Assembly: GCA_050248915.1 (NCBI GenBank)
Contig: JBFWRL010000004.1
Coordinates: 12,673 to 76,672 of the forward strand
Origin: Candidatus Sericytochromatia bacterium
GTDB lineage: Bacteria > Cyanobacteriota > Sericytochromatia > UBA7694
Direction of reading: 5' to 3'
Length of the DNA stretch: 64,000 nt
Part shown: in pieces, positions 38,864-58,342 of the stretch
Layout: every line of letters begins with the position of its first letter
Position numbering within the stretch: position 1 is the stretch's first letter
The notes under the pieces: model-generated
What the model saw: only the letters and a program-made list of their open reading frames with translations
What the model was told of the DNA's origin: nothing
Databases searched by the model: none
Translations under genes and position numbers: made by a program

Positions 38864-38910
38864 ACACTTAGTATACTACTGTTTTATTTAGAGTCCTAGT
38901 ATAATTAGTT

Positions 38911-41037: not shown

Positions 41038-41052
41038 AGCTGTGGCGGGGCT

Positions 41053-41689: not shown

Positions 41690-41751
41690 TTGCTGTGGCG
41701 AGTATTTGTAAGTACCCAGGGCTGAGTGCCGAAGAGGTGATGGGGCTTTAG
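41690..41751 (+). repeat. 3'-terminal fragment of the Rpn-like (DUF4351 tail) gene, convergent with paralog D
   Basis: It encodes ..VASICKYPGLSAEEVMGL*. It is homologous to the 3' ends at 50893-50963, 51900-51983 and 46660-46724. Confidence 0.6.
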
Positions 41752-44700
41752 GGCTGTTGCGGGCAAGGCTTTTGAGCTGCTGTGCTGAAAGAGGCATTGG
41801 CAGGCAGCATATTGCAGGCATAGGTGGTCTGTTCGATGCGGTTGCTGGGAATATTGGCTGAGCGCGCTTCAATCCAGCCCCCTTTTAAGGCCTGGTTGGG
41901 GATATTTACAAACATATTTTGAATCTCTACCCCATCACTGTCGATTTTGGACTCTAAAAAGACAGGCTTTTGTTTGATTTCTTTGCCCACTTCTGAGCGG
42001 GGCTGAAAGATAATTTCTGTCTTGGATGGAGCAAAACCTGTACCTGTGAGGTCGAGTTGGGGAGCGGCTTTGTCGGTGGTGATATCTTGGCCGTCTTTCT
42101 CTTTGGGCCATTCAGCCGAGAACAGTTTGGGGCCGAGGAATACTTCGAGATTCATTGTGAACATCTCTTTGTGCTGAGAAAGCCAAGTATCGTATTCCCA
42201 TAATGTATTAAAAACAGAAAGAACAGCTGAGCGAACAGGTTGCGTTTGTCCAAATGAGGTCATCATTAAGTAGCCAGCTTTATTTGTTGAAAAATCACTG
42301 CTGATATAAGGTTTTCTTCTTTTAAGGCCAGATTCAGTGACTTCTTTGACGGCCTCTCCTTCGAGATTATTCACTCCCACCATCCCTGGAATCAAAAATT
42401 CACGCACCTTACGAAACTCACCATTAATGGTTTGACTTAATTTTGGACCTGGAGAAACGGCTCTCACATATAGGTTCCGAGGTTCTCTGATATTTTTATC
42501 TGCTTGCAAAAGCAGATATACCGCAGAAAGAGGCTCTGTGCCTGAACTAGAAACGCTTAATGGTGTTGCAACTGAATGACTGGCTTTGACGATATGGGTT
42601 TTGTGATAGCCAATGTGCGGAAGTGTAATATCTGGAAACAAACTTACATTTTTATGAATGATTGCATCTGTCGCGAATTTGATAAAATAATCAGCTAAAT
42701 GGTCTCTCTGGGATGAATTGTTTTTTTGTTTTAAAACTGCATTTAATGCAGCAGTAGAACGTAAGGTGTCTTTGATTTGCTTTTTTTGGTTTAAGCCATA
42801 TTCTTGAACTACATCAGCAATTATTGACGCTCCCCCGTAATGATTAAATAGATGAGTTCAAAAGGGTACCGTTAAATAAGGGCTTCGAGCCCTTCCTGCT
42901 ATTCTTTTGAGATACATGCTTTCAGTTAATTGGTTTAAAATATCAAATCTTTCTGCATATTCATATAAAACGGGTACAGTTTTTCCCAAACCTAACTCTG
43001 TTGAGTTTAGTTCTGTGGCAACGGTGCCCATTAATGCTGCTGTGCCTTCAATTAACCAGCCATCAAGAGCTGAATTTATTTCGTCTTCGGGTGTGTTTGT
43101 ATAAGCTTGTTGAAATACATGAAATAATTCATGCATTGCTGTTTCAGAACGTACTTGTCCCCAATAATCTGGTTTGAGTAGACCTCCTAAGGTACCTTGA
43201 GTAATATTTAATTGAATAGCAGAGCCCTTATATGTAGTTTCTTCATACAATTCATAAGCAACACCATTAGCAGAGCTAGGAACATTTAAATTTGTTGTAA
43301 GTAAATTTTGAAAGCGGTTAACAAGAAATACAGGGATTTTCGGGTTTTTAAACCCACGATCAAGATAAGGCGGAGGTTTTTTTTACTTCAATTCAAGATA
43401 TTGAATATAGGCTTTTTCTAGGTATTCTTTTGCATTTTTTAGAGCCTCCGGACAGGCTACTCCATGGTTGTCGCTAATAAAAAAATATTTTGAAGAATCA
43501 TCAAACTGAGATTTTTGGGGTGGTGTACAATTCGAATTTTGATTTTGGATTTGGAAAGGAAGGGTTATGTTATTTTCATTATTTAGGAATTGATCCATTT
43601 CCTTTGATGTATAGGCTATCTCGCGAGAGAAAAAACCAAATTTCTGTACCCAAAGCGGGAAATTATGGTGAGTAATATCGCTAAAATTTTCCACATCAGG
43701 TCTTTTTGCTAAGAGAGGGTAATATCCCCAAGATAAAGAATTAAATACATTCATACTTGACGTATCCCAAATGGTTGGTGCACTAAATTTTTGGAAATAA
43801 TTATAAATGGGTAAATTGAGACGTGCTATTTGATTAAGCGTCATCCCCATCGGTTCAATTTTCACGATGGGTGCAGCAAAAACCCACCCTGGAGCACAAT
43901 CATCAGGATCGTTGGGATTGGTACAATTTTGTTTGCGAGAAGCTACCTCTTTCTGCTGGCGCATAACCACCACTGTCGGCGCACTTAAGGCCCCCGCAGG
44001 CAAATCCAGCTTGGCCACCCCCTGCAACTCCACAGTCCCCCCGGCTGGCCCAATCTGCTTGATCCCCGGCGGATACGCCGCCTGCTGATTCGTCGTCCAC
44101 CAGGCCATCTGAAACTCTTTCACTGTATCGGTCTTAAACTTAAGCACTAGATTCTGCCCATCGGGGTTGTACCAATCGCTCGGCACAGGCACAGGCCGCA
44201 CACCCAACAAAAACCAGCGGTTGAGGTCAATGGGCTTGCCTTGTTTGGAGCTGAGGGTGTCTTTGACATAATACAGCTCATCGCTCACTTCTAAGCTGCT
44301 ATTGGGTTTCCACTGGCCTTGCAGGTGCAGCAAAGCCTCGTAGCTGTGCTGCGGCAGGCGAATGGTGGCTTGCCCATCGCTGGCATCGCCATCGAGAATT
44401 TCCAGCTTCTTGCCAGTCCCCGCTTCGAGCACGAGTTGAAACGCACCGTTTTCGGGAATCTTGACCTGCTGCTTGCCGTTTTTGGCCTGGGTCATAAAAC
44501 GCACGACAAAGATCTGGGGCAGATTAAAGCTCTGCACAGCAAAGCCTTCCTCTGTGGGCTTTTCGGCAAGGGCCTGCTCCAGCGCGGCATTGAGCTGGGC
44601 ATTTTTATCGGCGGGCAGGTTTTGCGCCAAGGGTGTGGTTTTCACCCTATTGGGAAAGGTCACCTTTTCAGGCGGCTTTTGGCCTGTGTGTCCAACGATG

Positions 44701-44756
44701 AGTAAGCTAAGTAAAAGGATAGAAAATAAGGTTCTGTATTTCTTCATTCTGTTCAA
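41748..44756 (-). pseudogene. frameshifted paralog (copy D) of the giant HExxH lipoprotein family
   Basis: Three ORF pieces (43383..44756, 42858..43250, 41748..42641) align in order with the N-domain, the HExxH core (AMHELFHVFQ) and the C-domain (..TYACNMLPANASFSTAAQKPCPQ) of paralog B (51986..55021). Confidence 0.7.
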
Positions 44757-45733
44757 CTTTGGGTGAGTGAGTCAAATGCTTGTAAACGCATTTTGAGCAT
44801 GTGCAGACTTTCTCGGATGGCGGTAATGTCTGGCAAATCGCCGTAAACCAAAGGACGAAAACTACTTTGATAGGTTTGGTTCAACTGCTTCCAAAGAATG
44901 TCTGTATCACTGAAAATCAGGGCATGGACCAAAGGTGCTTGATTCCATTCCCCCTGAAATTCCCGGCTGTCGGCATCGTCTTTTTGTGCGTCTTGCAAGG
45001 TCTCAAAAAACCGCCCACTGTTTACAAATTCTCTCAGCGGTTGATGATTCATTAAAATATGTAAATCATAGGTATGACGAATCTTGTTTTGAAGTTGCGC
45101 AATGGGGTCGGCATGGTAAGAGGCACGGGCCAGTGCCAAGACTTTTTCTACCAGTGTTCGCTCTGGGTGTAATACCAGAATAGAAAAGGGTTCAAGCCCA
45201 TATTGACTGATCAAGGCTTCTTGGTTTTGAGCCGCGAAGAAGTCGGCTATCATTGTGTTGATTGGGGTGGGCTGATAGGGGGACGGATTGCCGAAGGCAT
45301 TTAACTCTAAAACAAGAAATGCGCTGATCTGGCTCTGCGGTGCGGGGGCTAACTCTAAAACAGGATAAAGATGGGCCGTTCGGCGAAAGCGAGACCACTT
45401 TTTGGTGATGCCTTCCAGCTTGAGTTCGCTTAAATGGCGTGTGATTTCTTTGGAAACCTTGTCTATTCTGCTTTTGATCTGATTCCCGGTTAAACCTTCC
45501 GCCAGCAAAGCCAGATCAACATCCTCTGAAAATCGCTGGATCAGGCCAAACGCTTTGGAGAGAGAGGTTCCTCCTTTAAAGACAAATCGCTCATGATAGG
45601 GGGATTCTCCCAGCTTTTTTAAGACGGTTGTAAGCCAATAATCTTTTTCGACCCAGGTATCAGGCATTCCCAAATGAACTGCAGCAGCACGAATACTGGC
45701 TTTAAAGAGTGGTGGATTCTCATGTAAATTCAT
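44753..45733 (-). CDS. AbiEii/AbiGii-family nucleotidyltransferase toxin (DUF1814)
   Basis: FKGGTSLSKAFGLIQRFSEDVDL matches the minimal-NTase motif of AbiEii. 326 aa. Confidence 0.7.
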   Translation of the reverse strand: MNLHENPPLFKASIRAAAVHLGMPDTWVEKDYWLTTVLKKLGESPYHERFVFKGGTSLSKAFGLIQRFSEDVDLALLAEGLTGNQIKSRIDKVSKEITRHLSELKLEGITKKWSRFRRTAHLYPVLELAPAPQSQISAFLVLELNAFGNPSPYQPTPINTMIADFFAAQNQEALISQYGLEPFSILVLHPERTLVEKVLALARASYHADPIAQLQNKIRHTYDLHILMNHQPLREFVNSGRFFETLQDAQKDDADSREFQGEWNQAPLVHALIFSDTDILWKQLNQTYQSSFRPLVYGDLPDITAIRESLHMLKMRLQAFDSLTQS

Positions 45734-46458
45734 CGAATATACCAGTTGCGGTAGTTTGGAAAAGTGTCTTTGTCTATTTTGAGGCGATAACGACTGCTGG
45801 GATTGAGGGTTTGCGCCAAAGTCTGGGCCAGTCTCTTTTTTCCCAGACTTTCCAAAACCAAACCCACAAAGGCCCGGCAGGAGGGGGGATAATTCAGGGC
45901 CAGTTGGGCAAGCTCATCTTGCTGATCCCGTTTGAGTTCTTTAATGCGCAAGCGCAATAAAACAGAAGATTTTTCTGGGGTGGTGGCAGGGATGTTATCC
46001 ATTTCCCGAATGGCATCCAGAATTTGCAAGAGATAGGTGTCTTGGACGGCTGTTTTGACATAACTGGGAATAAAGCGAATGGTGGTAGCCCCAGAAACAA
46101 TCGGCATTCGACGCGGCTTGTCAGAGGCGATGACATACTCGGTGGAGACCTGTGTGGTGAGGCCCATTTGGGTATAGGCTGGCAGCCCGGTTAAATAGGC
46201 AATGCTGTCTTTGTACAGAAGTAGCAATTTATCCAGGAGGCCGCGTGTTGTGGGTGGGAGTTCGCCAAAAGGGCTTTGTTCAGGTTTGTAATACAAACCC
46301 TTGGTAATGCGTTGCAAACCACCTGCTCGGTAAAGTTCGCTCAGGGCCTTTTCCAAGGCAATTTTTTTTGCCAGAGGCAGTTTAAAATCCTCCAGAGATA
46401 GCAGCGCGCCCGCCGCTGTATTTTGCACCTGTGTTTTTACCCACTTATTTACATTCAT
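45730..46458 (-). CDS. putative AbiEi-like antitoxin / regulator partner
   Basis: It lies immediately upstream of AbiEii with a 4-nt overlap. RITKGLYYKP is the kind of motif seen in AbiEi/DUF6088-type partners. The start is taken at MNVNKW. Confidence 0.45.
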   Translation of the reverse strand: MNVNKWVKTQVQNTAAGALLSLEDFKLPLAKKIALEKALSELYRAGGLQRITKGLYYKPEQSPFGELPPTTRGLLDKLLLLYKDSIAYLTGLPAYTQMGLTTQVSTEYVIASDKPRRMPIVSGATTIRFIPSYVKTAVQDTYLLQILDAIREMDNIPATTPEKSSVLLRLRIKELKRDQQDELAQLALNYPPSCRAFVGLVLESLGKKRLAQTLAQTLNPSSRYRLKIDKDTFPNYRNWYIR

Positions 46459-46620
46459 TTTGAATTGGCCTAAATTGTTTTCTGACTTGGGTTTTATTGT
46501 AATCAAGTGGACGATATAAATCAAGTTTTTTTATGAAAAACCTGATTATTTTGAACTCAAGACCTTTATGCGTGGCGGGAAAGAATGACAAGATGCCCTG
46601 CGTCTGGGTTTGCAGCAATG

Positions 46621-46724
46621 AGCGGGTAGTAATTTGCTGAACGAATACCTTAGCCGATGGCCTGCCTGTGGCGAGTATTTGCAAGTATACAGGGCTGAGC
46701 GCTGAAGAGGTGGCGGGGCTTTAG
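46621..46724 (+). repeat. internally deleted remnant of the Rpn-like gene 3' region, convergent with paralog A
   Basis: The sequence gtagtaatttgctgaacgaatacctta matches 50677-50695 and is joined directly to gccgatggcctgcctgtggcgagtatttgcaagtatacagggctgagcgctgaagaggtggcggggctttag, which matches 50893-50963. Its stop overlaps the stop of paralog A. Confidence 0.7.
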
Positions 46725-49700
46725 TGGTTTTTGCAATTCCCTGCGCTGGTAATGCGGTAATCAGCTCCTTTGGGTATCATATTGCAAACCAGTTCGATTT
46801 TTTCTTTGTATTCACTCTCTAAATTCCCTGATTTTGCATAGATATAACTTTCCTCCTCTGGGGCTGCGTCATCAGGTACTTTCACAATAATTTCCTGTTC
46901 TTGCTCAATACTGACAGGTTGGGCTAAGTTGCTGACACTGTGTGCTTTTACAGCAATATCCGGCAAATTTGCTAAACGATGTTTGAAATAAACAACCGTA
47001 TCTGTTAAAGAGAATCCTGAACCCCATAGTGCGAGCATTTTATTTTCGGTTACTCCATCTGATTCAGTAAAAGCTCTTTTGCCCCAAATGGTGGGCGAAA
47101 CAAAGGCTTTGAATTGAAACGAGATGGTTTTTTTGTCTGAATTGGTTGTGATATAGGGATTGGTGATACTTAAAATCAGGCGTACACGGTGGGGTTCAGC
47201 AGGATTGTTTTGGGTGGGCCTGTCTTCCTGGGGAATGGGAATGCCCAAGATATAAACACTTCGCGGAAGAACCCCTTTAATACTGGGGTTTCGTGATTCT
47301 GTAGGTACATTTATACGTTTTTCAAATTTGAGAGGCTCGGCCACAATTTTGGGATCAGAAAGCCATTTTACTTTGGCCAAAAGGGGTTTTTCATCCTTCC
47401 AGTTGTCCAGGGGCTTCGGATTTTTGAGTACTAAGACTCGTGTTCCTTTGGCGATAAAATCTTCTGCTTGTTCATCTGTCAAACCCTCTGCGGAGGCTCT
47501 GTCGAGGTAGATATATGCCATATAGGGGTCTTTAAACTTTTTTGGGTCTTTGTCTGATAGTTTTTGAGTTACCAGTGGAAACTCCACATAGCGATGTGCC
47601 ATTTGAAGGTTTTGGAGTGAGCTGTTGGTTACCATTTGAGGGTTGTTGGGGGTGTTGCGGGTTGTGACCAATATAGGGTTTGCACGGTCATTTGGTTGAG
47701 CGGGAATTGTGTAGTTCACTGTTTCGAGGTTGCCCGTATTATTGGCTATTGGTCGTATTTTAGGACGTTCTAAATATTTAAAATTTTCAGGCTTTTCAGA
47801 TCCCATGCCATAATCTTTTAATGCTACTTTGGCCCCAAAATTTGGAAAAGTTGTATCAAGTTGAGCATAGTTATGGAGCGAGGAAACGGCACCCTCATTT
47901 GTAAATTCTCGTTTTTGAAGATAGTGAACATTTATATCGTGAATTTTCTGAAAGGCTATTTGATTTGGATAAAAATTGCTAATAAGGTTTAATATAATAA
48001 GACGATAATAAGCATTTTCGCCGTCAGGTATATTTGGCTCTTGATATAGAGATGTTTGATTTAACAGATCTAAACCTTTACTCAAACTACCATGGTAAGG
48101 AATTTTTCCATATAAAAAGACAACAGGATTTGGGTCAATTCCGTATTTTTTGTACAATTCATGATGCTTAAAGGTACTTATGCTACCCATAAACCTACCA
48201 GAACTTTCAATTAACCAAGCTCGATCTACTGTGCTTAAAGCCCAACCCCAGGGATTGAATGCTTGGTTTGGAAGGTCAAAACTTTTTACATTTGCAACTT
48301 GAAAAGAATGATAATTTTCATGGGCAGTAGAATCTATTAAGTTGTCAATATTGGGACCTGGATCTACCCACATCTCGGCATTGCGAAACCCGTTTCCTTT
48401 TGCATAAGTGTACCCATTGGTTGCTCCTCCTGGTCCAGATGTAATTGGCTTAAGATACAGAGGGATTCCTTTGAAATCCGTACCTCCATGCCGAAAATCT
48501 TCCCACTTGGATGGCATTATTCCCCTGGCATACGGAATAAAGTCTTCACGACTATTTAGGAGAACTTCACATGCTGCATTTTTCTTTTCTTCAGAAGGAG
48601 AAACATCCCATCTTAAAATATATTGAGGTGTTAAGTCGTTGTGAGTATTGATGGGTGGGTTTGGACAAGGTTGTTCACTAACAAGAGCAATTTGAAATTC
48701 TTCTTGTTCATTATTTCCAATATAAGAAGGGGAATAAGTTCGCGGAGCTACAAGTATACGAACAAATGAAAAATGATGTATTTCATACCACTCGTGTTTG
48801 GTCATATAATGAGCTTGCTTTTTTTGGGGGGCCAGATGAAGTATTTCTGCCTGTTCCCAGAAAATGCCATTATCGGGAAACAAATAATAATGTATAGTGC
48901 TCGGCAAATATCCTTTAGCCTTTTCTAAGTCAATTTTCAAGCGTATATTTGCTGGTTTTAAGAATTGTAAGCCGCTGGGTTGGAGTTCAACAGGTGTTGC
49001 CAGATCTATTTCATCTGGACCGGGTGTAAAATCTTCATCAGGAAATTGATATACTTCATCTTTTTGTTTGATAACTATTACTTTATTCTCAGTCAAAGCC
49101 CCCGCAGGTACTTCCAATTCAGCCACCCCCGGCAGCTCCACGACCCCTCCGCCAGGCCCAATCTGCTTGATCCCCGGTGGAAAGGGAGCCTCACCGCGCT
49201 GCTTTTGCAGGAGCAGCTCAAACTCTTTGATCTGCTTGGCCTTAAACCGCAGCACAAAAGCCTGCCCATCAGGGCTGTACCAATCACTCGGCACGGGAAT
49301 GGGTCGCAGCCCCAGCTTGAACCATTTATTATCCCGCTCATCGTGGTGCCCCTTGTGCTTGCGCTCTTTGCTGAGGGTGTCTTTAACATAATAAAGCTCA
49401 TCGCTGACATCTAAGCGGCTATTGTCTTTGGCCTCTTCTAAATGCACCCAGGTTTTGAGCGTGCTTGCGGGCATTTGCACCCGTGCTTCGCCATCGCGGG
49501 CATCTTTGTCTAGTAGCTCAAAGCGTGGGCCAGCTTCGAGTGTGAGCATAAATTCACCTGTTTCAGGCATGAGAATCTGGCGCTTGCCCTTGGCCTCTTT
49601 GCTTTTGAATTCAAGCACATAGGCGGCGTTGTTATCCTGTTCATTGTGTTTGTCATCTTTGTCTTTGTCGCTGGCTGTGCTGAAACCCGTGCCAGGGTCA

Positions 49701-49963
49701 ACACTTGGGTTGTCTAAAAAAGCCCTGAGCAGGGCGCTCACTTCGTCTACTTCGCTGGGCTCGGGGGCCTCTAGCAAAGTGGTTGTGACCATATTGGGAA
49801 AGGTCACTTTTTCAGGTGCTTTGACTGTGCCCGTATTGGCCACGGTTTGTACCTGTGCCTGCTCAGGGCTTTTGCTGCTTTGCTGGGCCGGGGGAATCCA
49901 AGAGCAGGAAGCCAGGAGTGTTGCCAGCAGAGTCGAAGATAGGTATTTGAGAGATGCTTTCAT
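46721..49963 (-). CDS. giant HExxH lipoprotein, paralog A (putative secreted/surface zincin-like protease)
   Basis: 1080 aa. Lipobox LLASC. N-domain with PEKVTFPNMV and PGIKQIGPGGGVVELPGV. HExxH at about 48305-48325 (TAHENYHSFQ). C-domain GSGFSLTDTVVYFKHR...VCNMIP. A strong SD caaggaggtaattaaATG precedes it. Confidence 0.85.
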   Translation of the reverse strand: MKASLKYLSSTLLATLLASCSWIPPAQQSSKSPEQAQVQTVANTGTVKAPEKVTFPNMVTTTLLEAPEPSEVDEVSALLRAFLDNPSVDPGTGFSTASDKDKDDKHNEQDNNAAYVLEFKSKEAKGKRQILMPETGEFMLTLEAGPRFELLDKDARDGEARVQMPASTLKTWVHLEEAKDNSRLDVSDELYYVKDTLSKERKHKGHHDERDNKWFKLGLRPIPVPSDWYSPDGQAFVLRFKAKQIKEFELLLQKQRGEAPFPPGIKQIGPGGGVVELPGVAELEVPAGALTENKVIVIKQKDEVYQFPDEDFTPGPDEIDLATPVELQPSGLQFLKPANIRLKIDLEKAKGYLPSTIHYYLFPDNGIFWEQAEILHLAPQKKQAHYMTKHEWYEIHHFSFVRILVAPRTYSPSYIGNNEQEEFQIALVSEQPCPNPPINTHNDLTPQYILRWDVSPSEEKKNAACEVLLNSREDFIPYARGIMPSKWEDFRHGGTDFKGIPLYLKPITSGPGGATNGYTYAKGNGFRNAEMWVDPGPNIDNLIDSTAHENYHSFQVANVKSFDLPNQAFNPWGWALSTVDRAWLIESSGRFMGSISTFKHHELYKKYGIDPNPVVFLYGKIPYHGSLSKGLDLLNQTSLYQEPNIPDGENAYYRLIILNLISNFYPNQIAFQKIHDINVHYLQKREFTNEGAVSSLHNYAQLDTTFPNFGAKVALKDYGMGSEKPENFKYLERPKIRPIANNTGNLETVNYTIPAQPNDRANPILVTTRNTPNNPQMVTNSSLQNLQMAHRYVEFPLVTQKLSDKDPKKFKDPYMAYIYLDRASAEGLTDEQAEDFIAKGTRVLVLKNPKPLDNWKDEKPLLAKVKWLSDPKIVAEPLKFEKRINVPTESRNPSIKGVLPRSVYILGIPIPQEDRPTQNNPAEPHRVRLILSITNPYITTNSDKKTISFQFKAFVSPTIWGKRAFTESDGVTENKMLALWGSGFSLTDTVVYFKHRLANLPDIAVKAHSVSNLAQPVSIEQEQEIIVKVPDDAAPEEESYIYAKSGNLESEYKEKIELVCNMIPKGADYRITSAGNCKNH

Positions 49964-50063
49964 TTAATTACCTCCTTGCGGGTAGAGGATATAGCGGCCT
50001 GTATTGGCCAGGGTGTCTTGGACCTCCACCTCTAGCGTATGGCCTGGCAGGCGATAGGGCAAG
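49964..50063 (-). repeat. about 100-bp boundary repeat: 3' end of a 930-aa-type gene plus SD, upstream of paralog A
   Basis: It is nearly identical to 55022-55122 and to the genuine 3' end of the 930-aa gene at 58343-58445, which encodes ..LPYRLPGHTLEVEVNDTLANTGRYILYPQGGN*. Confidence 0.8.
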
Positions 50064-50111
50064 AGGTAAATACCAATGGTCTGTATACTTTTGTATGTTA
50101 TAATGGACTGA

Positions 50112-50963
50112 ATGAGTAAACACCGAATTCATTGGGATCATTATTTCAGTCAATGGCTGGCACACGCTTTGCCCCGCCATGATTTGGTGGTTGAAGAAAA
50201 ACCCCAGTTCAGTCAATTGCCCTTAGAAGCAGACGTTTTAATTATTGCGGCTTCTCAGGCCAAGTCTGCATGGCAAAAGCATCCCCTGTGGTGTCATTTG
50301 AGCCCTTATACGGTGCTGGAGTTTAAGTCTGTCGTCGATCCCTTTCGCGCTCATGATTTGGAAACGCTGTCTGCTTATGTGTCTCTGACCCATCGTCAAC
50401 ACCCCTTGTCGTTGCCTACAGAGGTAAGCGGTTGGTTGGTTGTTTCGGCGATGAACAAAGCGTTGCGGAGCCGTTTGCAAAGTTATGGGATTCAATTGGA
50501 ATCACGGCTATCTGGGTTTTGGCAGGCAGAGACGACGTTTTATCGTCTGGGAGTGGTGGAGTACAACCATTTGCCAAATACCGAAGCTTTTTTTGAGTTA
50601 AAAACCTTTATGCGCTCAGGACAAGCGTTGCGAGAAACCCTGCGCATGGGTTTAAAGCACTTAGCAGGTAGTAATTTGCAGAACGAATACCTTACAATAA
50701 TTTCAGCGCTACACAAACAGGAGGCCGAAGCCGTGATTCAGGTATTGGAAAGTGAAAAAGAGAATGTGGCTTGGGTTGTGGAGCAGTTATTAGAGAAGTC
50801 TCCCGACTTGAGTGAAAAGATCCCCTTCATTCAAGCACAGAAATCTTCGGGTAAGCTAGAAGGGTTGCGTGAGACCGCCCGCCAGATGAAAGCAGATGGC
50901 TTGCCTGTGGCGAGTATTTGCAAGTATACAGGGCTGAGTGCTGAAGAGGTGGCCGGCCTTTAG
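50112..50963 (+). CDS. Rpn-family / DUF4351-tail protein (putative PD-(D/E)XK recombination-promoting nuclease/transposase-like)
   Basis: 283 aa. The C-terminal ..ARQMKADGLPVASICKYTGLSAEEVAGL is the characteristic DUF4351 tail of Rpn/YhgA-like proteins. The N-terminal region is weakly nuclease-like. Confidence 0.55.
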   Translation: MSKHRIHWDHYFSQWLAHALPRHDLVVEEKPQFSQLPLEADVLIIAASQAKSAWQKHPLWCHLSPYTVLEFKSVVDPFRAHDLETLSAYVSLTHRQHPLSLPTEVSGWLVVSAMNKALRSRLQSYGIQLESRLSGFWQAETTFYRLGVVEYNHLPNTEAFFELKTFMRSGQALRETLRMGLKHLAGSNLQNEYLTIISALHKQEAEAVIQVLESEKENVAWVVEQLLEKSPDLSEKIPFIQAQKSSGKLEGLRETARQMKADGLPVASICKYTGLSAEEVAGL

Positions 50964-51089
50964 GGGGCTTTTGCTTGGGTTTGGTTACAAGGTGTAGTGG
51001 GTTTATTCTGCAAGGTATTTGAAATCACATAGCTCGCATTGCTCTGAACGCTGTTGCATGAGACAGGTGTGATCCCAAAAACTTCGATT

Positions 51090-51150
51090 TCGAAGTTTTC
51101 TTTGACCTCCACCTCCAGTGTGTGGCCTATTAGCCGATAGGGCAAGTGAG
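51090..51150 (-). repeat. degenerate third copy of the 930-aa-gene 3'-end boundary repeat
   Basis: The minus-strand ORF fragment encodes ..LPYRLIGHTLEVEV... Compare LPYRLPGHTLEVEV at the true gene end. Confidence 0.6.
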
Positions 51151-51227
51151 CGTTGGTTAAAAATAGCCTCAAAACACCCATGCAAAATTCCTGTTAATTT
51201 TGTATATACATATGATATATTTTAAGT

Positions 51228-51512
51228 ATGCGTTTGCCAGATCAAATCCGTACTATTTCATCCGCCCACAAACATGGGGTAACTGAAACCCAAATTTTAG
51301 ACAGCTTGTACAACCCCTACCAACGCCCCTTGCTATTGCGTTCAGAGTCTGACCCGACTGTGGTACTGGCTCTGGCGGAAACAGAAGATGGAGAATTGTT
51401 TGAAATTGGCTATGTACCTGAGCAAGAGGGTGTGGCTAGAGTGATTCATGCCATGCCCATGCGCCTCAGTTACCAAAAACGCTATCACACCAAGAGGAAA
51501 AGGCGAAGATGA
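51228..51512 (+). CDS. putative BrnT-like toxin (DUF497)
   Basis: 94 aa. AHKHGVTETQILD...LFEIGYV...ARVIHAMPMR resembles BrnT. It is paired with the downstream antitoxin by an ATGA overlap. Confidence 0.5.
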   Translation: MRLPDQIRTISSAHKHGVTETQILDSLYNPYQRPLLLRSESDPTVVLALAETEDGELFEIGYVPEQEGVARVIHAMPMRLSYQKRYHTKRKRRR

Positions 51513-51781
51513 AACGAACTGTGCCCCAAACGCTTGCTGAATGTCAAACAGATGAGCAACGTGCAGACTATCTTGTTAAACATGATGTCTTTGAAAGCGA
51601 TGAATTCAAGTATGAAGGGGTGGCCGAGCCTCCCCGTCGTCGCTTGATGCAGCAATTGCATATGCGGATTGACGAAGAAACCATTGCCCGTCTGCGCAAA
51701 GTGGCTGACAGTAAGCGCATGGGGTATCAGACGTTGGCCAGGATGTGGCTGATAGAGCGTTTGGAACAGGAAGAAGTCTGA
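51509..51781 (+). CDS. putative BrnA-like antitoxin (RHH/CopG-like)
   Basis: ..RIDEETIARLRKVADSKRMGYQTLARMWLIERL resembles the BrnA C-terminus (..GIPYQTLI..). Confidence 0.55.
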   Translation: MKRTVPQTLAECQTDEQRADYLVKHDVFESDEFKYEGVAEPPRRRLMQQLHMRIDEETIARLRKVADSKRMGYQTLARMWLIERLEQEEV

Positions 51782-51785
51782 GGCA

Positions 51786-51983
51786 ATGGGTTTGGCCGCA
51801 GAACGTCAGGAATTGAGAAAGACCATGCTTGAGTTGGTGAAAGAAGATGTTGAAAAAACATTACAAGCACGTGAACTTCAAAGTAAACGCGAAAGCGCCC
51901 GCCAGATGAAAGCCGATGGCTTGCCCGTGGCCCGAATTTGCAAGTACACAGGGCTGAGCGCTGAAGAGGTGGCGGGGCTTTAG
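51786..51983 (+). pseudogene. truncated Rpn-like gene fragment (DUF4351 tail only), convergent with paralog B
   Basis: A 65-aa ORF ending ..ARQMKADGLPVARICKYTGLSAEEVAGL*. Its N-terminal part is unrelated to the intact gene at 50112. Confidence 0.55.
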
Positions 51984-51985
51984 GG

Positions 51986-54900
51986 CTATTGAGGACAGGG
52001 CTTTTGAGCTGCTGTGCTGAAAGAGGCATTGGCAGGCAGCATATTACAGGCAAGAGTTGCATCAATGAGTCGGTTGCTGGGGATATTGGCTGTTTGCCCC
52101 TCTACCCAACCGCCACGCAGAGCTTCGTTGGGAATATCCACCACAAATTTTTGAATTTCAACTCCGTCACTGTCTGCTTGAGAGTTGAGAAAATGGGCTT
52201 TGCGCTTAAGATTTTTGTCTATTCCTGAGCGGGGTTCAAATACGATTTCTGTCTGAGTAGGTGTGAATCCAGTCCCTGTGATTAAAAGCTGTGGCAACCC
52301 TTTTTCAGCTGCTTGGCTGAGCTCGTTGTCCTCTTGGGGCCATTCTGCGGAAATGAGCTTGGGGCCGAGGAATACTTCAAGGTTCATGGTGAATTTTTCT
52401 GTATAAGCTTGTGTCCAAATGTCTGTTTCCCAGAGAGTATTAAAGACAGATAAAATGGCTGATTGAACAGGTTGATTTTGACCAAAAAGAGGCATCATAA
52501 AATGCCCTGATTTATCAAAAGCAAAACCACTGCTGATATATGGTTTGCGTTTTTTACCACTGGCTTCAGTTATTTCTTTGACCGCTTCTCCTTCCAGATT
52601 ATTCACACCGACCAAACTGGGCGCTAAAAACTCTTTGACTTTTCTGGCTTGTTGATTAATGGTGTGGGTCAAATTGGGATCAGGAGAAATGGCGCGAACG
52701 TATAAGTTGCGCGGTTGCAGAATCTTCTTATCCGCTTGTAAGAGCATGTATATGGCAGATAGGGGTTCTGTGCCGTTGGTGCTAATGTGAAGTGGGGATT
52801 GGACTGTATGATTGGCTTTGACGACATGGGTATGCCGGAAAGCGACATGGGGCAATGAATAACTGGAGAAAAGGCAAATATCTTTGTGGATGATGGCATC
52901 TGTGGCAAAACGCGTAAAATAATCACTGAGAAGGGTGTCATCTTTTTTCTTTAAAAATGCTGCCAGAGCACCTGTTGAACGAGGTGTGTTTGGGGTATTG
53001 GCTGGTCTTTTTCTAAAGTTTAAGCCGTATTCTTTAAAGAGTTCAGCTATGCCGTTGGGGCCGTAATAGTTCGCAAAATGGGTCCACAAGGGAACTGTGT
53101 CATAAACACTGCGATTTTCGTTATAATCACGTAAATAATAAAAACTTTTTTCCAGTTGTTCCAGAGAACGAACACGCTCATAGTAGCTGTAAACTTGGGG
53201 ATCTATTGCTTCTAATCCAATATCTGCTCTTCTCGTCTCGACCGCAAAAGGCCCCATATATGCTGCTGTGCCTTCGAACATCCAGCGATCACCGATGGAT
53301 GCGTCATCTTCAGGTGTTTGCAAATAGGCATCTTGAAAAATATGAAACAACTCATGTGCGCTTGTATCTGCAAAATTGTGTCCCCAAAAATCTCGGCCAC
53401 CTACCAAACTGTCTTTTTCGATATTCATTTGCATAGCTGAGCCTTGATAGACATTGTTTTTATAAATGGGATAAGCTACGCCATTTGCATTTTGGGGGGT
53501 GGTAGATGCAATGTCCCTCAAGAGATCTTGAAAGCCCTCTACTATAAAAACAGGAATTTTGGTCTCCTCCAGATCGGTTGGAGAATAAAATTGTGGAGGT
53601 GCTTTCATATCCCAACTGGCATAGACAGAATAGGCATTTTCAAGATATTTTTTTATACTGTCCATGGCTTCTGGGCAAGCTTCGCCATCATTGTCGCTAA
53701 TATAAAAGTGTTCTGTAATTTCTCGTTGAAACGTACCCTTTTTTTGACAAGTAGGATTATAGCTCTGAATTTTAAAAGACTCTGATTCAAAAAACTGATC
53801 TACACTGGGTGTATAGTGTTGTTGCTTTGAAAAATAGGCGAATTCTTGGATCCAAAGAGGAAAATTATGATGTGTAATATCACTAAATTTTCGGACATCT
53901 GTACGTTTTGCTAAATAGGGAAAATACACCCAAGAAAAAGGTTCTAAAATATTTGCTGTTGCTACATCTTGTTGGCTTAATGGATCATAACGTTTAAAAT
54001 AATCATAAATTGGTAAATTCAGCTTAGCTGGTTGGTTGAGTTTTAATCCTAATGGTTCTATTTTAACAATGGGAGCAGCAAAAACCCAGCCAAGAGCACA
54101 GTCTTGTGGATCATGTGGATTTGGGCAATATTTTTTACGAGAAGCTACCTCTTTCTGCTGGCGCATAACCACCACCGTCGGCGCGCTTAAAGCCCCTGCA
54201 GGCAAATCCAGCTTGGCCACCCCCGGCAGCTCCACAGTCCCCCCCGCAGACCCAATCTGCTTGATCCCCGGCGGATATGCCGCCTGCTGATTCGTCGTCC
54301 ACCAGGCCATCTGAAACTCTTTCACTGTATCGGTCTTAAACTTCAGCACCAGCTTTTGCCCATCGGGGTTGTACCAATCACTCGGCACAGGCAAAGGCCG
54401 CACACCCAACAAAAACCAGCGGTTTAAATCGAGCAATTTGCCCTGTTTGGAGCTGAGTGTGTCTTTGACATAGTAGAGGTCATCGCTCACCTCTAAGCTG
54501 CTATTGGGCTTCCAGGGGCCTTGCAGGTGTAGCAAAGTCTCGTAGGTATGCTGGGGCAGGCGAATCGTGGCTTGGCCATCGCTGCCATCGCCATCGAGAA
54601 TTTCCAGCTTCTTGCCAGTCCCCGCTTCGAGCACGAGTTGAAACGCGCCATTCTCGGGAATTTTGACCTGCTGTTTGAGGTTCTTGGCCTGGGCCATAAA
54701 GCGCACGACAAAGACCTGGGGCAGATTAAAGCTCTGCACAGCAAAGCCCTCTTCGGCAGGCTTCTCGGCCAGGGCCTGCTCCAGCGCGGCATTGAGCTGG
54801 TCGTTTTTATCGGCGGGCAGGTTTGTGTCCAAGGGTGTGGTTTTCACCATATTGGGAAACGTCACCTTTTCAGGCGGCTTTTGGCCTGTGTCGGCAGCGG

Positions 54901-55021
54901 TCTGCACCTGTGCTTGTATCTGGGCCTGTCGCTGGCTGCTTTGCTGGGCCGGGGGAATCAGGCTGCAGGCAGCGAGAAAGCTGGCGAGCAGGGCTGCGGA
55001 TAGGGGTTTGAGTAAATTCAT
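51986..55021 (-). CDS. giant HExxH lipoprotein, paralog B
   Basis: 1011 aa. Lipobox FLAAC. B/D-type N-domain. HExxH at about 53341-53370 (SAHELFHIFQ). C-domain TGTGFTPTQTEIVFEPRSG...ATLACNMLPANASFSTAAQKPCPQ. The same SD and boundary repeat lie upstream. Confidence 0.85.
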   Translation of the reverse strand: MNLLKPLSAALLASFLAACSLIPPAQQSSQRQAQIQAQVQTAADTGQKPPEKVTFPNMVKTTPLDTNLPADKNDQLNAALEQALAEKPAEEGFAVQSFNLPQVFVVRFMAQAKNLKQQVKIPENGAFQLVLEAGTGKKLEILDGDGSDGQATIRLPQHTYETLLHLQGPWKPNSSLEVSDDLYYVKDTLSSKQGKLLDLNRWFLLGVRPLPVPSDWYNPDGQKLVLKFKTDTVKEFQMAWWTTNQQAAYPPGIKQIGSAGGTVELPGVAKLDLPAGALSAPTVVVMRQQKEVASRKKYCPNPHDPQDCALGWVFAAPIVKIEPLGLKLNQPAKLNLPIYDYFKRYDPLSQQDVATANILEPFSWVYFPYLAKRTDVRKFSDITHHNFPLWIQEFAYFSKQQHYTPSVDQFFESESFKIQSYNPTCQKKGTFQREITEHFYISDNDGEACPEAMDSIKKYLENAYSVYASWDMKAPPQFYSPTDLEETKIPVFIVEGFQDLLRDIASTTPQNANGVAYPIYKNNVYQGSAMQMNIEKDSLVGGRDFWGHNFADTSAHELFHIFQDAYLQTPEDDASIGDRWMFEGTAAYMGPFAVETRRADIGLEAIDPQVYSYYERVRSLEQLEKSFYYLRDYNENRSVYDTVPLWTHFANYYGPNGIAELFKEYGLNFRKRPANTPNTPRSTGALAAFLKKKDDTLLSDYFTRFATDAIIHKDICLFSSYSLPHVAFRHTHVVKANHTVQSPLHISTNGTEPLSAIYMLLQADKKILQPRNLYVRAISPDPNLTHTINQQARKVKEFLAPSLVGVNNLEGEAVKEITEASGKKRKPYISSGFAFDKSGHFMMPLFGQNQPVQSAILSVFNTLWETDIWTQAYTEKFTMNLEVFLGPKLISAEWPQEDNELSQAAEKGLPQLLITGTGFTPTQTEIVFEPRSGIDKNLKRKAHFLNSQADSDGVEIQKFVVDIPNEALRGGWVEGQTANIPSNRLIDATLACNMLPANASFSTAAQKPCPQ

Positions 55022-55126
55022 CTTAACTACCTCCTTGCGGGTAGAGGATATAGCGGCCTGTATTGGCCAGGGTGTCTTGGACCTCCACCTCTAGCGTATG
55101 GCCTGGCAGGCGATAGGGCAAGCTAA
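55022..55126 (-). repeat. about 100-bp boundary repeat (3' end of a 930-aa-type gene plus SD) upstream of paralog B
   Basis: It matches 58343-58447 including the extension ..gcaagctaaaac. There is no intact 930-aa gene upstream of B. Confidence 0.8.
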
Positions 55127-55228
55127 AACTGACCTTTACTGTTATCCCTCACCGCTACCTTTTGCTTTTACATTCTTTCTGAACGCAGTACGATAGCCTG
55201 CAAGAATCTTGTGAGAGGAGGTGCAAAC

Positions 55229-58200
55229 TTATGGGGGATCAGAGTCTGATGTACATGGGTTTACGCTCGTGAGCGAAAAATCTTCTTGCAACATATTGCA
55301 GGCAAAAGCTGTATCGTTCAGTGTATTACTCGGCGTTTCTGCTGATAATCCGTAAGTCTGACCTGATACTTTTGCATGATTCGGTATTTGGACTAATAAT
55401 TCTTGCACTTCTAGGCCATCACTGTCTGTAGATAAAACTTTTATGTCTTGAGGGTTGACTTTTGTTTTGATGGCAATTGCCCCAGATTTTGGTTGAAAAA
55501 CCATCCACGTGTCATTCGGATCAAAACCAACCCCTTGAAATGATATACGTGTAAGCGTTTCATCATCAGAAAGGGCAATTTTTTTGCTTGATTTTAACTC
55601 TGGTGCAAGGTAATAGTTTATGTCCAGAAATATCGATAAGGGTGCTTGGGCGGATTCATAGAAATTTGAATTGGGTATGGCTAAGACTAATTTTTCAACA
55701 TTGGTTTTATTTAAAATTACAGCAGGGAATCCATTTGTTTTGTCTATAAATCTCCTGTAATTTAATACTTTATCAATTCCATTTTCGCTTTTAATCAAAA
55801 ATATGCGCGCATATTTTGCAAAATCAGAGGACTCTTCTTTATTTAAAATTTTAGGAGGAATAGATGAGCCCAAATTTTTAACGATATTATTTAAAAATAC
55901 TATAATCTTTTTATTTGATGGAATATCTTGAGTATCTATTTCAAAAAAATGCACAGAATCTGCCGATAGCTCTTTTCTTAAATTTATTTTGTCCTTTGGG
56001 TAGCTTGTTTTTTTTATTTTTTCTATTTTATCAATAGGGGAAAATAATTCAATATTATAATCATTTTTAATCTTAATAAGATTGCTAGCCGAGTTCATGC
56101 CATAATGTTGGCGCGTATAAAGTGAGTGGGAATATTTTCCCCAAATTTCTTCCCAGCTGTCGTCTTCTAATTGAGCTTTTATGGTATTGTTTTGAAGAGC
56201 TAAAGTTTTTAAAGGGACAACTTGATGGTCAGAATTGTTGTGAAAAGATTGTACGTAACTGAGTAAAAAAGAGTTTCCAAGGTAATCGTTCTCTGGCTTG
56301 CTTTCAGAGCTTCCTACCAAATGCCAGAAATAGGACATGAGAGAGACTTGCTGATAAGGATCTGGCGTTAGTCTAACAGGCTTTTGGGTGTTTTTTATGC
56401 TTGGCAATAAATCTTCGATGTATGCAGTTAAGGAGCTACTTGACTGTGGACTGGACCAAATCAAAGAAAAAGCAGATTTCCCTGTAAAGTTTGTTAATAT
56501 ATTATAGTTGTTAAAATCTCTGTATAGTTGATGTGAACCCACAAAACGAGCCGTACTTTCTCCCGGTAGTCGACCATAATTACACGTTTTACAATATAAT
56601 TGGATATATGTTGAGTAGTCTAAATTTCCAAACTGGAAAACATGAAACATCTCATGATAAACTTTCTCAACACCTAATGGGTATGTTAATAGCGGTATGG
56701 TTACAGAGGATGAGCCTGCTTTAAATTCTTTTAATTTAGTTGTTGCCTCAATGAGATTTGAACCTATATTTATTCTCTGTTTTCGGGAGGTGTATCCAGG
56801 TATTTGGTCGTCTAAAATCGGCAAAGAAATGTTAGCTTGATCTTTTTTTGAGAATTTTTGGTAAGATTTTTCCGCTGCTACCATATATGCAAGGATATAA
56901 GCCGCATCAAGAGCTGAATTTGTTTGGTCATTTGTTATATGGACAAAAATATGACCAGGATCTGGTGCTGGTTCATTGCAAAGTTCTTCAAGTCTTTGTC
57001 TTGCTGAAGAAACAGATATGATTTCATTTGCTAGAGAGATTCTTGTTAAGCAAAATTTGGAGCTACCTCCTTGATTTGGCTTTGGTGCTGGTAACGTATT
57101 GGTTGAAATTAGAAAATCATTGTCGGTTAATTTGGCAAAATATGAAAAATGATTTACTAAATAACCTACTTCGTCAATATTATTAAATTGAGGGTTAATT
57201 TGTTTTGTTTCAAAGTCTAGAGATTGGCAATTTACGTTTTGAAGAGGTGATGTCTTCAACTCTGGACAGGAAATCATTTGTATTAAACCAATGTGATAGG
57301 GCCAATTTTTAAAAAAAGTGCTTAAACGCATGACTGCAGGTTTTTGAAATGTAAGCCCAGTTGGATTCATTTTTACAATAGGGGATACAAAAGTAAAATC
57401 ATTAAATGGATACGTAGAAACAACCTGCCTCATAGAGATAACTACTGGTGCTAATAATGCACTTGCTGGCACTTCAAGTTTTCCCACCCCCGGCAGCTCC
57501 ACTGTGCCCCCCGCAGGCCCAATCTGCTTGATCCCCGGTGGAAACGGAGCCTCACCGCGCTGCTTTTGCAGGAGCAGCTCAAACTCTTTGATCTGGTTGG
57601 CCTTAAAGCGCAGCACAAAAGCCTGCCCATCAGGGCTGTACCAATCACTCGGCACGGGAATGGGTCGCAGCCCCAGCTTGAACCATTTATTATCCCGCTC
57701 ATCGTGGTGCCCCTTGTGCTTGCGCTCTTTGCTGAGGGTGTCTTTAACATAATAAAGCTCATCGCTGACATCTAAGCGGCTATTGTCTTTGGCCTCTTCT
57801 AAATGCACCCAGGTTTTGAGCGTGCTTGCGGGCATTTGCACCCGTGCTTCGCCATCGCGGGCATCTTTGTCTAGTAGCTCAAAGCGTGGGCCAGCTTCGA
57901 GTGTGAGCATAAATTCACCTGTTTCAGGCATGAGAATCTGGCGCTTGCCCTTGGCCTCTTTGCTTTTGAATTCAATCACATAGGCGGCGTTGTTATCCTG
58001 TTCATTGTGTTTGTCATCTTTGTCTTTTTTATCGTCATCTTTGCCTTTGTCGCTGGCTGTGCTGAAACCCGTGCCAGGGTCAGCACTTGGGTTGTCTAAA
58101 AAGGCTTTGAGCAGGGCGCTCACTTCGTCTACTTCGCTGGGCTCGGGGGCCTCTAGCAAAGTGGTGGTGACCATATTGGGGAACGTCACTTTTTCAGGCG

Positions 58201-58342
58201 GCTTTTGGCCTGTGTCGGCAGCGGTCTGCACCTGTGCTTGTACCTGTCGTTGGCTGCTTTGCTGGGCCGGGGGGATCAGGCTGCAGGCAGCGAGAAAGCT
58301 GGCGAGCAGGGCTGCGGATAGGGGTTTGAATAAGGCTTTCAT
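55229..58342 (-). CDS. giant HExxH lipoprotein, paralog C (mosaic)
   Basis: 1037 aa. The first about 55 aa are B-like (MKALFKPLSAALLASFLAACSLIPPAQQSSQRQ). The N-domain is A-like from PNMVTTTLLEAPEPSEV onward, including a KD-rich insertion. The unique very AT-rich core has HExxH at about 56640-56668 (VYHEMFHVFQ). The C-domain is B/D-like: ..TAFACNML. Confidence 0.85.
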   Translation of the reverse strand: MKALFKPLSAALLASFLAACSLIPPAQQSSQRQVQAQVQTAADTGQKPPEKVTFPNMVTTTLLEAPEPSEVDEVSALLKAFLDNPSADPGTGFSTASDKGKDDDKKDKDDKHNEQDNNAAYVIEFKSKEAKGKRQILMPETGEFMLTLEAGPRFELLDKDARDGEARVQMPASTLKTWVHLEEAKDNSRLDVSDELYYVKDTLSKERKHKGHHDERDNKWFKLGLRPIPVPSDWYSPDGQAFVLRFKANQIKEFELLLQKQRGEAPFPPGIKQIGPAGGTVELPGVGKLEVPASALLAPVVISMRQVVSTYPFNDFTFVSPIVKMNPTGLTFQKPAVMRLSTFFKNWPYHIGLIQMISCPELKTSPLQNVNCQSLDFETKQINPQFNNIDEVGYLVNHFSYFAKLTDNDFLISTNTLPAPKPNQGGSSKFCLTRISLANEIISVSSARQRLEELCNEPAPDPGHIFVHITNDQTNSALDAAYILAYMVAAEKSYQKFSKKDQANISLPILDDQIPGYTSRKQRINIGSNLIEATTKLKEFKAGSSSVTIPLLTYPLGVEKVYHEMFHVFQFGNLDYSTYIQLYCKTCNYGRLPGESTARFVGSHQLYRDFNNYNILTNFTGKSAFSLIWSSPQSSSSLTAYIEDLLPSIKNTQKPVRLTPDPYQQVSLMSYFWHLVGSSESKPENDYLGNSFLLSYVQSFHNNSDHQVVPLKTLALQNNTIKAQLEDDSWEEIWGKYSHSLYTRQHYGMNSASNLIKIKNDYNIELFSPIDKIEKIKKTSYPKDKINLRKELSADSVHFFEIDTQDIPSNKKIIVFLNNIVKNLGSSIPPKILNKEESSDFAKYARIFLIKSENGIDKVLNYRRFIDKTNGFPAVILNKTNVEKLVLAIPNSNFYESAQAPLSIFLDINYYLAPELKSSKKIALSDDETLTRISFQGVGFDPNDTWMVFQPKSGAIAIKTKVNPQDIKVLSTDSDGLEVQELLVQIPNHAKVSGQTYGLSAETPSNTLNDTAFACNMLQEDFSLTSVNPCTSDSDPP

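Follow-up and report, generated by a model that had tools for sequence, protein, structure and literature searches.

The closest described relatives of the gene considered here are the rpn genes, toxin-antitoxin and phage-defence systems in which a small C-terminal protein, RpnS, whose translation begins within the gene, inhibits the long nuclease, RpnL (Zhong et al. 2023, PMC10400941; commentary PMC10400984). A helix shared by RpnL and RpnS bears a hypervariable number of 4-aa repeats (PMC10400941; PMC10400984), and RpnS also occurs as a separate gene, for example ypaA (PMC10400941). Here we describe an Rpn-like gene, rpn1, together with a set of fragments of its 3′ end, in a 64,000-nucleotide (nt) stretch of DNA from a Candidatus Sericytochromatia bacterium (contig JBFWRL010000004.1; "the window" throughout), where they face an array of genes for lipoproteins of about 1000 aa (paralogs A to D and a remnant, E). 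The reading which we favour, and which we hold to be probable though by no means secure, is that rpn1 is an Rpn-type intragenic toxin-antitoxin gene and that the fragments are relics of sister genes whose toxin-encoding 5′ parts were overwritten. The features on which this reading turns are the following (ORF, open reading frame; AF2, AlphaFold2; dN/dS, ratio of non-synonymous to synonymous substitution rates; locus numbers beginning with L denote comparison loci).

50112..50963, plus strand: rpn1, the intact Rpn-like gene, 283 aa (ORF list; D41/E70/F71/K72/S73 invariant; AF2 model; dN/dS)
50719..50735, plus strand: predicted internal translation start in rpn1, AGGAGG (50719-50724), 8 nt, then GTG (V208, 50733-50735); conserved in six clade-1 genes
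50850..50873, plus strand: region of 4-aa repeats, GKLE-GLRE, in the long helix before the tail; unit number varies among close orthologs
51786..51983, plus strand: 65-aa RpnS-like ORF at the flank of paralog B, equivalent to the C-terminus of a clade-2 rpn (TIGR01784 tail match, E 1e-4; clade-2 alignment; AF2 model)
46546..46724, plus strand: rpn relic at the flank of paralog A, a pseudogene in which aa 160-195, with two stops, are joined by an internal deletion to aa 261-283 (tblastn; comparison with L003)
41695..41751, plus strand: rpn relic at the flank of paralog D, the last 18 codons, decaying (invariant T273 changed to P; an A changed to M)
41035..41080, plus strand: fifth relic, the last 22 nt of the rpn tail and about 25 nt of downstream junction, between a DUF7691 gene and HigA (repeat D15 and junction alignment)

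The ORF is intact, as the preliminary description of this DNA had it, and its product ends in ...ADGLPVASICKYTGLSAEEVAGL (also given as ...ARQMKADGLPVASICKYTGLSAEEVAGL), directly before the stop codon. It is under strong purifying selection (dN/dS 0.06-0.11 against the orthologs in L001-L003) and is laid out as an N-terminal PD-(D/E)XK-like domain (D41, E70-F71-K72), a helical linker and a C-terminal, RpnS-like three-helix tail. D41 and E70-F71-K72-S73 are invariant in an alignment of 23 homologs. The AF2 model of the protein (pLDDT, the predicted local distance difference test, 85.7) has an alpha-beta-beta-beta-alpha-beta core with the motif residues D41, E70 and K72 at beta2 and beta3, and of its Foldseek neighbours in the PDB the most telling are the PD-(D/E)XK proteins NucS/EndoMS (probability 0.97) and XisH (0.80), with weak E values (0.07-0.14) and template-modelling (TM) scores of 0.27-0.47. 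The resemblance of the N-terminal domain to PD-(D/E)XK nucleases lies in its invariant motif and predicted fold, not in family membership.

It is the tail that ties the protein to the Rpn family. A profile of the 23 homologs matches PDB 7TH0, the 49-residue crystal structure of RpnA-S (E 1.6e-4). With hhalign, 40 C-terminal residues align with E. coli RpnA (probability 92%, E 6e-7) and the tail aligns with 100 canonical PF12784 Rpn proteins (probability 94.7%, E 6e-8); nearly the same tail peptide, SARQMKADGLPVETIAKYTGLT..., is found in canonical PF12784 Rpn proteins of other phyla, and a precomputed domain, PF27070, is common to tails of the rpn1 type and PF12784 proteins. The sole Rpn signal in NCBIfam is a sub-threshold match of TIGR01784 to residues 212-281 (E 8e-4), a phmmer search of RpnA against all fetched proteins returned tail matches only, and across the family no region of the protein is better conserved than the tail. 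The N-terminal nuclease-like domain is matched by none of the Rpn family profiles PF04754, PF12784 and TIGR01784. Pfam gave nothing relevant at E<=0.1 with 22 aligned homologs and no domain at E<=0.001 with 10 distant family members, and the DUF4351 model (PF14261) matches neither the 283-aa protein, nor the 65-aa ORF, nor the short homologs. On these comparisons, Rpn-like character is demonstrable for the last ~40 aa of rpn1 only. The preliminary description had called the gene Rpn-like with a DUF4351 tail: the assignment stands for the tail (TIGR01784, 7TH0, hhalign) and fails where it appealed to Pfam PD-(D/E)XK and DUF4351 profiles, the DUF4351 label finding no match even at E<=1.

Close homologs are confined to metagenome-assembled genomes (MAGs) of Sericytochromatia, Blackallbacteria and Melainabacteria. 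An exhaustive profile search at E<=1e-3 returned 3460 cluster representatives, 183 of them at E<=1e-10, and some may match through the shared tail alone. A Peptidase_S8 (subtilase) gene lies directly upstream of an rpn-like gene in two loci whose rpn genes belong to different clades (L003, 8332-9945; L017, 2592-4184).

The hallmarks of the RpnL/RpnS gene-within-gene arrangement, variable 4-aa repeats and a conserved internal Shine-Dalgarno sequence with its start codon, are present at the sequence level. AGGAGG followed by 8 nt and GTG is kept in the window, L001-L004 and L015, whose proteins are 47-94% identical, and for P0037, a free-standing 88-aa protein, the gene caller places the start at the equivalent clade-1 GTG. 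In clade 2 AGGAGGT is invariant 10-11 nt before the internal start in all eight genes for which DNA is available, while nearby synonymous sites vary; the start codon itself is ATG in seven of them and GTG in L013. (L013 was at one point considered a natural split into separate nuclease and RpnS genes and is more simply a frameshifted full-length gene.) Initiation at the internal start of rpn1 is predicted to give a 76-aa RpnS-like product. The repeat units (GKLE, GRLE or GRQE) number two in the window, four in L001 and L002, five in L015 and seven in L003. L001 and L002 both read GKLE-GRLE-GKLE-GLRx and their proteins are 94% identical. Repeat number varies in the free-standing clade-2 copies too.

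The 3′ end of rpn1 recurs at 41695-41751, 46546-46724 and 51786-51983, with a fifth remnant of 22-45 nt at 41035-41080, and all of the tail copies lie stop-to-stop against a lipoprotein paralog or a paralog remnant. A 26-nt tail consensus has four matches in the window with <=3 mismatches and none in 100 shuffles. In tblastn against the window, the B flank matches rpn1 aa 248-283 (51873-51980, 83%, E 2e-13), the D flank aa 266-283 (41695-41748, 89%, E 2e-4) and the A flank, in two pieces, aa 160-195 (46547-46654, 61%, two in-frame stops) and aa 261-283 (46653-46721, 100%). The preliminary description had placed such fragments convergently at the stops of D, A and B, and tblastn, repeat search and tail consensus bear it out. 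Its geometry holds too: the A and D relics, with stops at 46722-46724 and 41749-41751, overlap by TTAG the paralog ORFs ending at 46721 and 41748, and the B relic stops at 51981-51983, 2 nt from the stop of paralog B (51986-51988). The two A-flank pieces likewise agree with the internal deletion it proposed, although this relic begins at 46546 and not at 46621. The boundary, shared by D, A and B, is also shared by the E and fifth remnants. It is not a property of every paralog, as had been claimed, since paralog C carries no rpn tail by tblastn or tail consensus.

The relics are not alike. The upstream piece of the A-flank relic is identical to the L003 rpn gene at 98 of 107 nt (92%) against 81 of 107 (76%) for the resident gene, and by this measure the relic is derived from an allele of the L003 type. 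Between rpn1 and the A relic the tail differs by five synonymous and no non-synonymous changes, and between rpn1 and the B relic by eight and one; such near-purely synonymous differences imply that the copies diverged as functional genes. As judged from these alignments, the comparison shows the fragments to be relics of at least three different rpn alleles or clades and not copies of the resident gene. Three of the relics are dead. Gene conversion between units was considered as the cause of the tail similarity and dropped, the tail being the most conserved region throughout the family and the differences synonymous. The ~25-nt junction of the fifth relic is also seen after rpn1 and after the rpn gene of L011. 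The neighbouring HigA ORF ends at 41053-41056 with the same TTAG stop overlap with the fifth remnant as A and D have with theirs, and the last HigA codons there run through the junction sequence of the remnant.

The B-flank copy is, as first described, a 65-aa ORF, and it has a different standing from the other relics. It begins exactly at the conserved internal Met of clade 2 and matches over its full length the tails of the clade-2 genes in L005, L006 and L011. It is 100% identical to P0029, an annotated protein in an NCBI Sericytochromatia MAG; a full-length clade-2 protein, P0011, is one 4-aa unit longer and shares the NCBI locus-tag prefix, which makes an origin in that MAG probable, and its gene surroundings on the retrieved contig are unrelated. 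Intact frames of 65-77 aa with ATG or GTG starts and varying repeat number share the junction with an upstream CopG gene in the window, L012, L014 and GCA_041445565.1. Among these, dN/dS is 0.13-0.27, a sign of purifying selection, values that gene conversion with full-length paralogs could inflate or deflate. The AF2 model of the ORF is one long helix and two short ones, and its top PDB neighbour is 7TH0, RpnA-S (probability 0.99, target-normalised TM 0.86, root-mean-square deviation 0.8 A). Tail-only ORFs are common across Rpn-type genes in rumen and other metagenomes: the 80 metagenome loci with an Rpn-type tail (L018-L097) include 57 full-length ORFs and nine short ones (<150 aa) away from contig ends, the latter being 9 of the 67 resolvable tail-bearing loci. 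The 65-aa ORF does not follow a cognate full-length rpn; its upstream neighbours are a 94-aa gene and the CopG gene, and the nearest full-length gene is rpn1, of the other clade. We conclude that it is a free-standing RpnS-type gene, of a kind already described (ypaA), in an unusual operon-like position. It is probably a functional orphan gene of antitoxin type, a role suggested by its conservation and its RpnS-like model.

What lies on the 5′ side of the relics distinguishes them further. The modules found there are:

40504..41037, plus strand: DUF7691 gene, at the rpn2 position of relatives, directly after APH (39430-40428) (profile match and synteny)
41053..41644, minus strand: HigB (41363-41644) and HigA, with a helix-turn-helix (HTH) domain (41053-41397), between two rpn-tail relics (HigB-like_toxin E 7e-18; HTH_3 E 2e-10)
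44753..46524, minus strand: AbiEi/AbiEii abortive-infection module (AbiEii E 2e-87; AbiEi E 4e-41)
51228..51781, plus strand: gene for a 94-aa protein (51228-51512) and gene for a 90-aa CopG-type antitoxin (51509-51781) (CopG_antitoxin E 4.7e-6)

The 5′ edge of every fragment adjoins a different one of these (the HigB side of HigBA, AbiEi, CopG and, at the fifth remnant, DUF7691) and never a copy of the tail of the 930-aa gene described below. AbiE now stands where paralog D had its 5′ end and its 930 tail and where the A-flank rpn had its 5′ half. At the B flank the replacement can be placed to the nucleotide: homology to the L005 sequence upstream of rpn2, the clade-2 gene of the relatives, ends at the rpn2 ribosome-binding site (RBS), and homology to the rpn2 gene of L011 restarts at 51779, 7 nt before the ATG of the 65-aa ORF, so that exactly the RpnL-only, toxin-only, part was replaced. 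The stretches 51147-51227 and 51779-51786 flank the 94-aa/CopG segment. The 94-aa gene, the CopG gene and the 65-aa ORF form an operon-like trio, which is found at the same site after APH in GCA_041445565.1 and L014; L012 also has the CopG-RpnS junction, which there converges on a 1005-aa lipoprotein and on a homolog of the 930-aa gene (948 aa). L011 is syntenic with 28766-40409 of the window, and there APH is followed by a full-length but frameshifted clade-2 rpn, convergent with a lipoprotein C-terminus. This rpn (L011, 9855-10679, from a Blackallbacteria MAG) is in three frames, as a pseudogene or through an assembly error. PDB sequence searches found nothing for the 94-aa protein, which may be BrnT-like, to judge by its position before a CopG/BrnA-type gene. 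An IS200/IS605 pair at 37556-39324 (TnpB 37556..38863, minus strand; TnpA/Y1 38911..39324, plus strand) is an insertion relative to L011, in which 37548 joins 39400.

On the other side the relics abut the lipoprotein array, which is itself built of repeated pieces:

41748..44756, minus strand: paralog D, a pseudogene in three ORF pieces with the 5′ end missing (ORF list; comparison with L012)
46721..49963, minus strand: paralog A, lipoprotein, 1080 aa (ORF list)
49964..50077, minus strand: final ~100 nt of the 930-aa gene, copied together with an RBS, immediately upstream of paralog A (repeats D6 and D13; alignment)
50960..51181, minus strand: paralog "E" remnant (sixth paralog), an ORF convergent with rpn1 (TTAG stop overlap with rpn1; repeat D13)
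51986..55021, minus strand: paralog B, lipoprotein, 1011 aa (weak match to the HExxH metalloprotease family MXAN_6640)
55023..55136, minus strand: 930-gene tail copy upstream of paralog B (repeat search, alignment)
55229..58342, minus strand: paralog C, 1037 aa, lipobox LAAC, HEMFH motif; the sole paralog without an rpn tail at its 3′ end

Copies of the ~100-nt tail of the 930-aa gene precede A, B and the E remnant and are 91-100% identical. The E remnant consists of the last ~48 codons of a paralog (50963-51106) fused to a piece of 930-gene tail (51099-51146) and shares 77% of its amino acids with an ORF of L011, itself a match to paralogs C, B and D at their C-termini. Paralog D lacks its first ~23-46 codons relative to L012. 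Only where the rpn promoter is complete, at 50064-50111 and also in L005, does a 930 tail adjoin an rpn gene, and the repeated unit must therefore have carried a whole rpn gene. The unit proposed in the preliminary description, a 930 tail, a lipoprotein gene and an rpn tail, is in this respect half right: the 930 tail is there before A, B and E, whereas what followed was not the rpn tail alone but the whole gene with its promoter. In L005 (9884-9967) a homolog of the 930 tail of ~90 nt stands directly upstream of a clade-2 rpn with no 930 or lipoprotein gene nearby, as if the rpn had moved together with this scrap. The 930-aa gene itself (58343-61135) directly abuts the start of paralog C with its stop (58343 and 58342). 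Beyond the weak MXAN_6640 match of B, the 930-aa protein and the ~1000-aa lipoproteins have no match in Pfam, PADLOC or PDB sequence searches, the last of which found nothing for the 930-aa protein or paralog C. The paralogs are mosaics with sharp identity boundaries. A and C agree at 75-100% of nucleotides in their first ~1 kb, with 300 nt at 100%, and cannot be aligned beyond it. B and D agree at 87-96% at the 5′ end, and A and B at ~40% internally and at 76% in the flank that holds the rpn tail. Pseudogene D, in its final 400 nt, is 90-99% identical to L012, a metagenome contig of a different sample. This mosaicism points to recent recombination or transfer.

In the scheme that we propose, rpn1 would encode a toxin-antitoxin or defence protein of the gene-within-gene type, from a family specific to its lineages (Sericytochromatia, Blackallbacteria, Melainabacteria). 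Its N-terminal PD-(D/E)XK-like nuclease would be the toxin. If E. coli RpnL/RpnS is a guide, a second, small protein most likely starts at the internal Shine-Dalgarno sequence and GTG and binds the long form as its antitoxin. The locus would have been assembled from units in which an rpn gene with its promoter converges on a lipoprotein paralog preceded by ~100 nt of the 930-gene tail, with at least three rpn alleles or clades represented, as the alignments show. In four of the units, on the evidence of the junctions, the nuclease-encoding 5′ part of rpn was overwritten later by DUF7691, HigBA, AbiE or the small-gene/CopG pair. Two reasons may explain why 3′ ends alone survive: insertions probably entered from the rpn promoter side, and truncation from the 5′ side would cost the gene its toxin but leave intact both the tail that encodes the antitoxin and the lipoprotein gene next to it. 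The 65-aa ORF, whose conservation is evident, would have been kept as an RpnS-like gene standing on its own, in translational coupling with the CopG gene. If the fragments are relics of overwritten rpn genes, the tails therefore mark unit boundaries passively.

Several results weigh against this reading. Pfam finds no Transposase_31, PDDEXK_2 or DUF4351 match to the 283-aa protein even at E<=1, and no PADLOC model matches it. The N-terminal 200 residues (131 sequences), compared by hhalign with the 100 canonical PF12784 proteins, reach a probability of 0.5%, and the same value is obtained with E. coli RpnA, local and greedy modes having been tried; to this is added the weakness of the Foldseek E values. 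At 65-89 aa the predicted small products exceed RpnA-S (49 aa) in length, and the repeats lie ~30-45 residues past the predicted start as against 8-20 in E. coli. Defence-island surroundings were sought around family genes in L002, L003, L005 and L017 and none were found. The possible effect of gene conversion on the dN/dS values counts here too, and four relics are too few to prove a 3′-end bias, which by orientation alone would arise with a chance of 1/16.

The same boundaries could have been made by the gene itself. Breaks introduced by the resident nuclease would stimulate recombination. The rpn tail on the 3′ side and the 930 tail, or the conserved 5′ kilobase of the lipoprotein genes, on the 5′ side would serve as homology arms for exchanging or duplicating what varies in the lipoprotein genes, their C-terminal two-thirds. 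Overexpressed E. coli Rpn proteins raise RecA-independent recombination, in the form in which the commentary reports it (Kingston et al. 2017, as cited in PMC10400984), and PMC10400941 raises the speculation that RpnL could initiate them; the mosaic paralogs with their sharp identity boundaries, the near-identity of the 930 tails (91-100%) and the bracketing of different intervening genes by a 930-like gene and a convergent rpn in L001, L002 and L012 would all fit. Ordinary RecA-dependent recombination explains the mosaics equally well, however, and selection at the protein level explains the conservation of a tail whose differences are almost all synonymous and whose peptide is conserved in Rpn proteins of unrelated phyla. 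Moreover, the tails adjoin five different inserted modules and not recombinant lipoprotein junctions, paralog C has no tail, and the family is found in other genomes without any lipoprotein array. We consider such a role unlikely, and its extension, a nuclease-assisted cassette exchange using rpn and 930 tails as functional homology arms to diversify large surface lipoproteins in non-photosynthetic relatives of cyanobacteria, quite improbable. That the resident Rpn drives rearrangement of the array is speculative; no result computed here shows the resident nuclease creating the tail boundaries.

The preliminary description offered another origin, in which the fragments are breakpoints of segmental tandem duplications of a 930 tail, lipoprotein and rpn tail, copied from the neighbourhood of the resident gene. 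The head-to-tail order of the units, the 930-tail copies upstream of A, B and the E remnant and the uniform stop-to-stop position of the tails agree with it, and Rpn arrays elsewhere in bacteria do arise by tandem duplication (PMC10400941). Yet none of the fragments has its 5′ end against a 930 tail, each meeting a different module; the sole 930-tail/rpn junction is at a complete rpn promoter. The fragments also differ in length and in allele or clade, one being closer to L003 (92%) than to the resident gene (76%) and both clade 1 and clade 2 being represented. At this site relatives have either an rpn of full length or the CopG-RpnS trio, and in our view this origin is improbable. Finally, the tail might be kept as nucleic acid, as a terminator or 3′ untranslated region shared with the convergent lipoprotein genes or as the site of a site-specific recombinase. 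Zero intergenic distance with overlapping stops at four junctions, and a junction core of ~45 nt that survives where both flanking genes are gone, could be taken in this sense, yet terminator-like signals do not exceed chance (11 found against 14.9 expected), the folding z-scores of both tail strands range from -1.6 to +1.9, substitutions are codon-wise synonymous and the only recombinase genes nearby are the unrelated IS200/IS605 pair. We regard a nucleic-acid function as very improbable indeed.

Under the overwriting of sister rpn genes, the design in which an antitoxin lies inside a toxin gene would extend from RpnL/RpnS to a sizeable family whose nuclease domain is missed by current Rpn and Pfam models, and this suggests that the RpnS module can combine with divergent PD-(D/E)XK toxins. 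The B flank would be a natural instance of an exchange confined to exactly the toxin-only part, which gave way to another toxin-antitoxin pair, the small antitoxin ORF being spared. Such exchanges predict an asymmetry: what survives of these genes should be their 3′ ends. In annotation, short "hypothetical" ORFs that lie beside larger genes and end in ...KYTGLSxxE(V/I)xxL should be taken as RpnS-type relics or orphans. Rearrangement of the lipoprotein array is not accounted for by rpn1 and the relics alone.

Set beside known systems, the family most resembles E. coli RpnA-E (RpnL/RpnS; PMC10400941; 7TH0). The two share a protein of ~280 aa, a homologous C-terminal ~40 aa with a three-helix HTH-like fold, hypervariable 4-aa repeats (one hydrophobic residue with charged residues or Gly) in a long helix, a conserved internal Shine-Dalgarno sequence and start codon in the 3′ third, and a D...ExK-type motif; an N-terminal "xDxxFxQ" motif resembles RpnA PHDALFK by eye. 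Unlike RpnA-E, the window family is described from sequence and models, has an N-domain that PF04754, PF12784, TIGR01784 and hhalign do not recognise, and would make a larger small product, with an extra N-terminal helix and with the repeats further from its start. The 65-aa ORF compares with free-standing RpnS genes (E. coli ypaA/rpnE-Ss; "DUF4351" proteins) as an intact, conserved short ORF with the RpnS domain only and its own start codon, but it has no Pfam DUF4351 match and follows an unrelated small-gene/CopG pair that replaced a toxin part instead of a cognate rpn.

As in orphan antitoxins and decayed toxin-antitoxin loci, what encoded the toxin is gone and what encodes the antitoxin has stayed. 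In the present case a single reading frame serves both, so that loss of the toxin appears as a 5′ truncation. The packing together of HigBA, AbiE, CopG-type and Rpn modules that replace one another recalls the turnover of defence islands, except that these modules are interleaved with a lipoprotein gene array. The array in turn is like Rhs and contact-dependent inhibition (CDI) orphan arrays and capsule and O-antigen loci in its conserved 5′ segment, hypervariable remainder and mosaic copies, and in the short stretch of an upstream gene repeated before each downstream copy. It differs from them in that its 3′ flank is an unrelated convergent gene and that its paralogs are full-length HExxH lipoproteins and not toxin tips with immunity genes.

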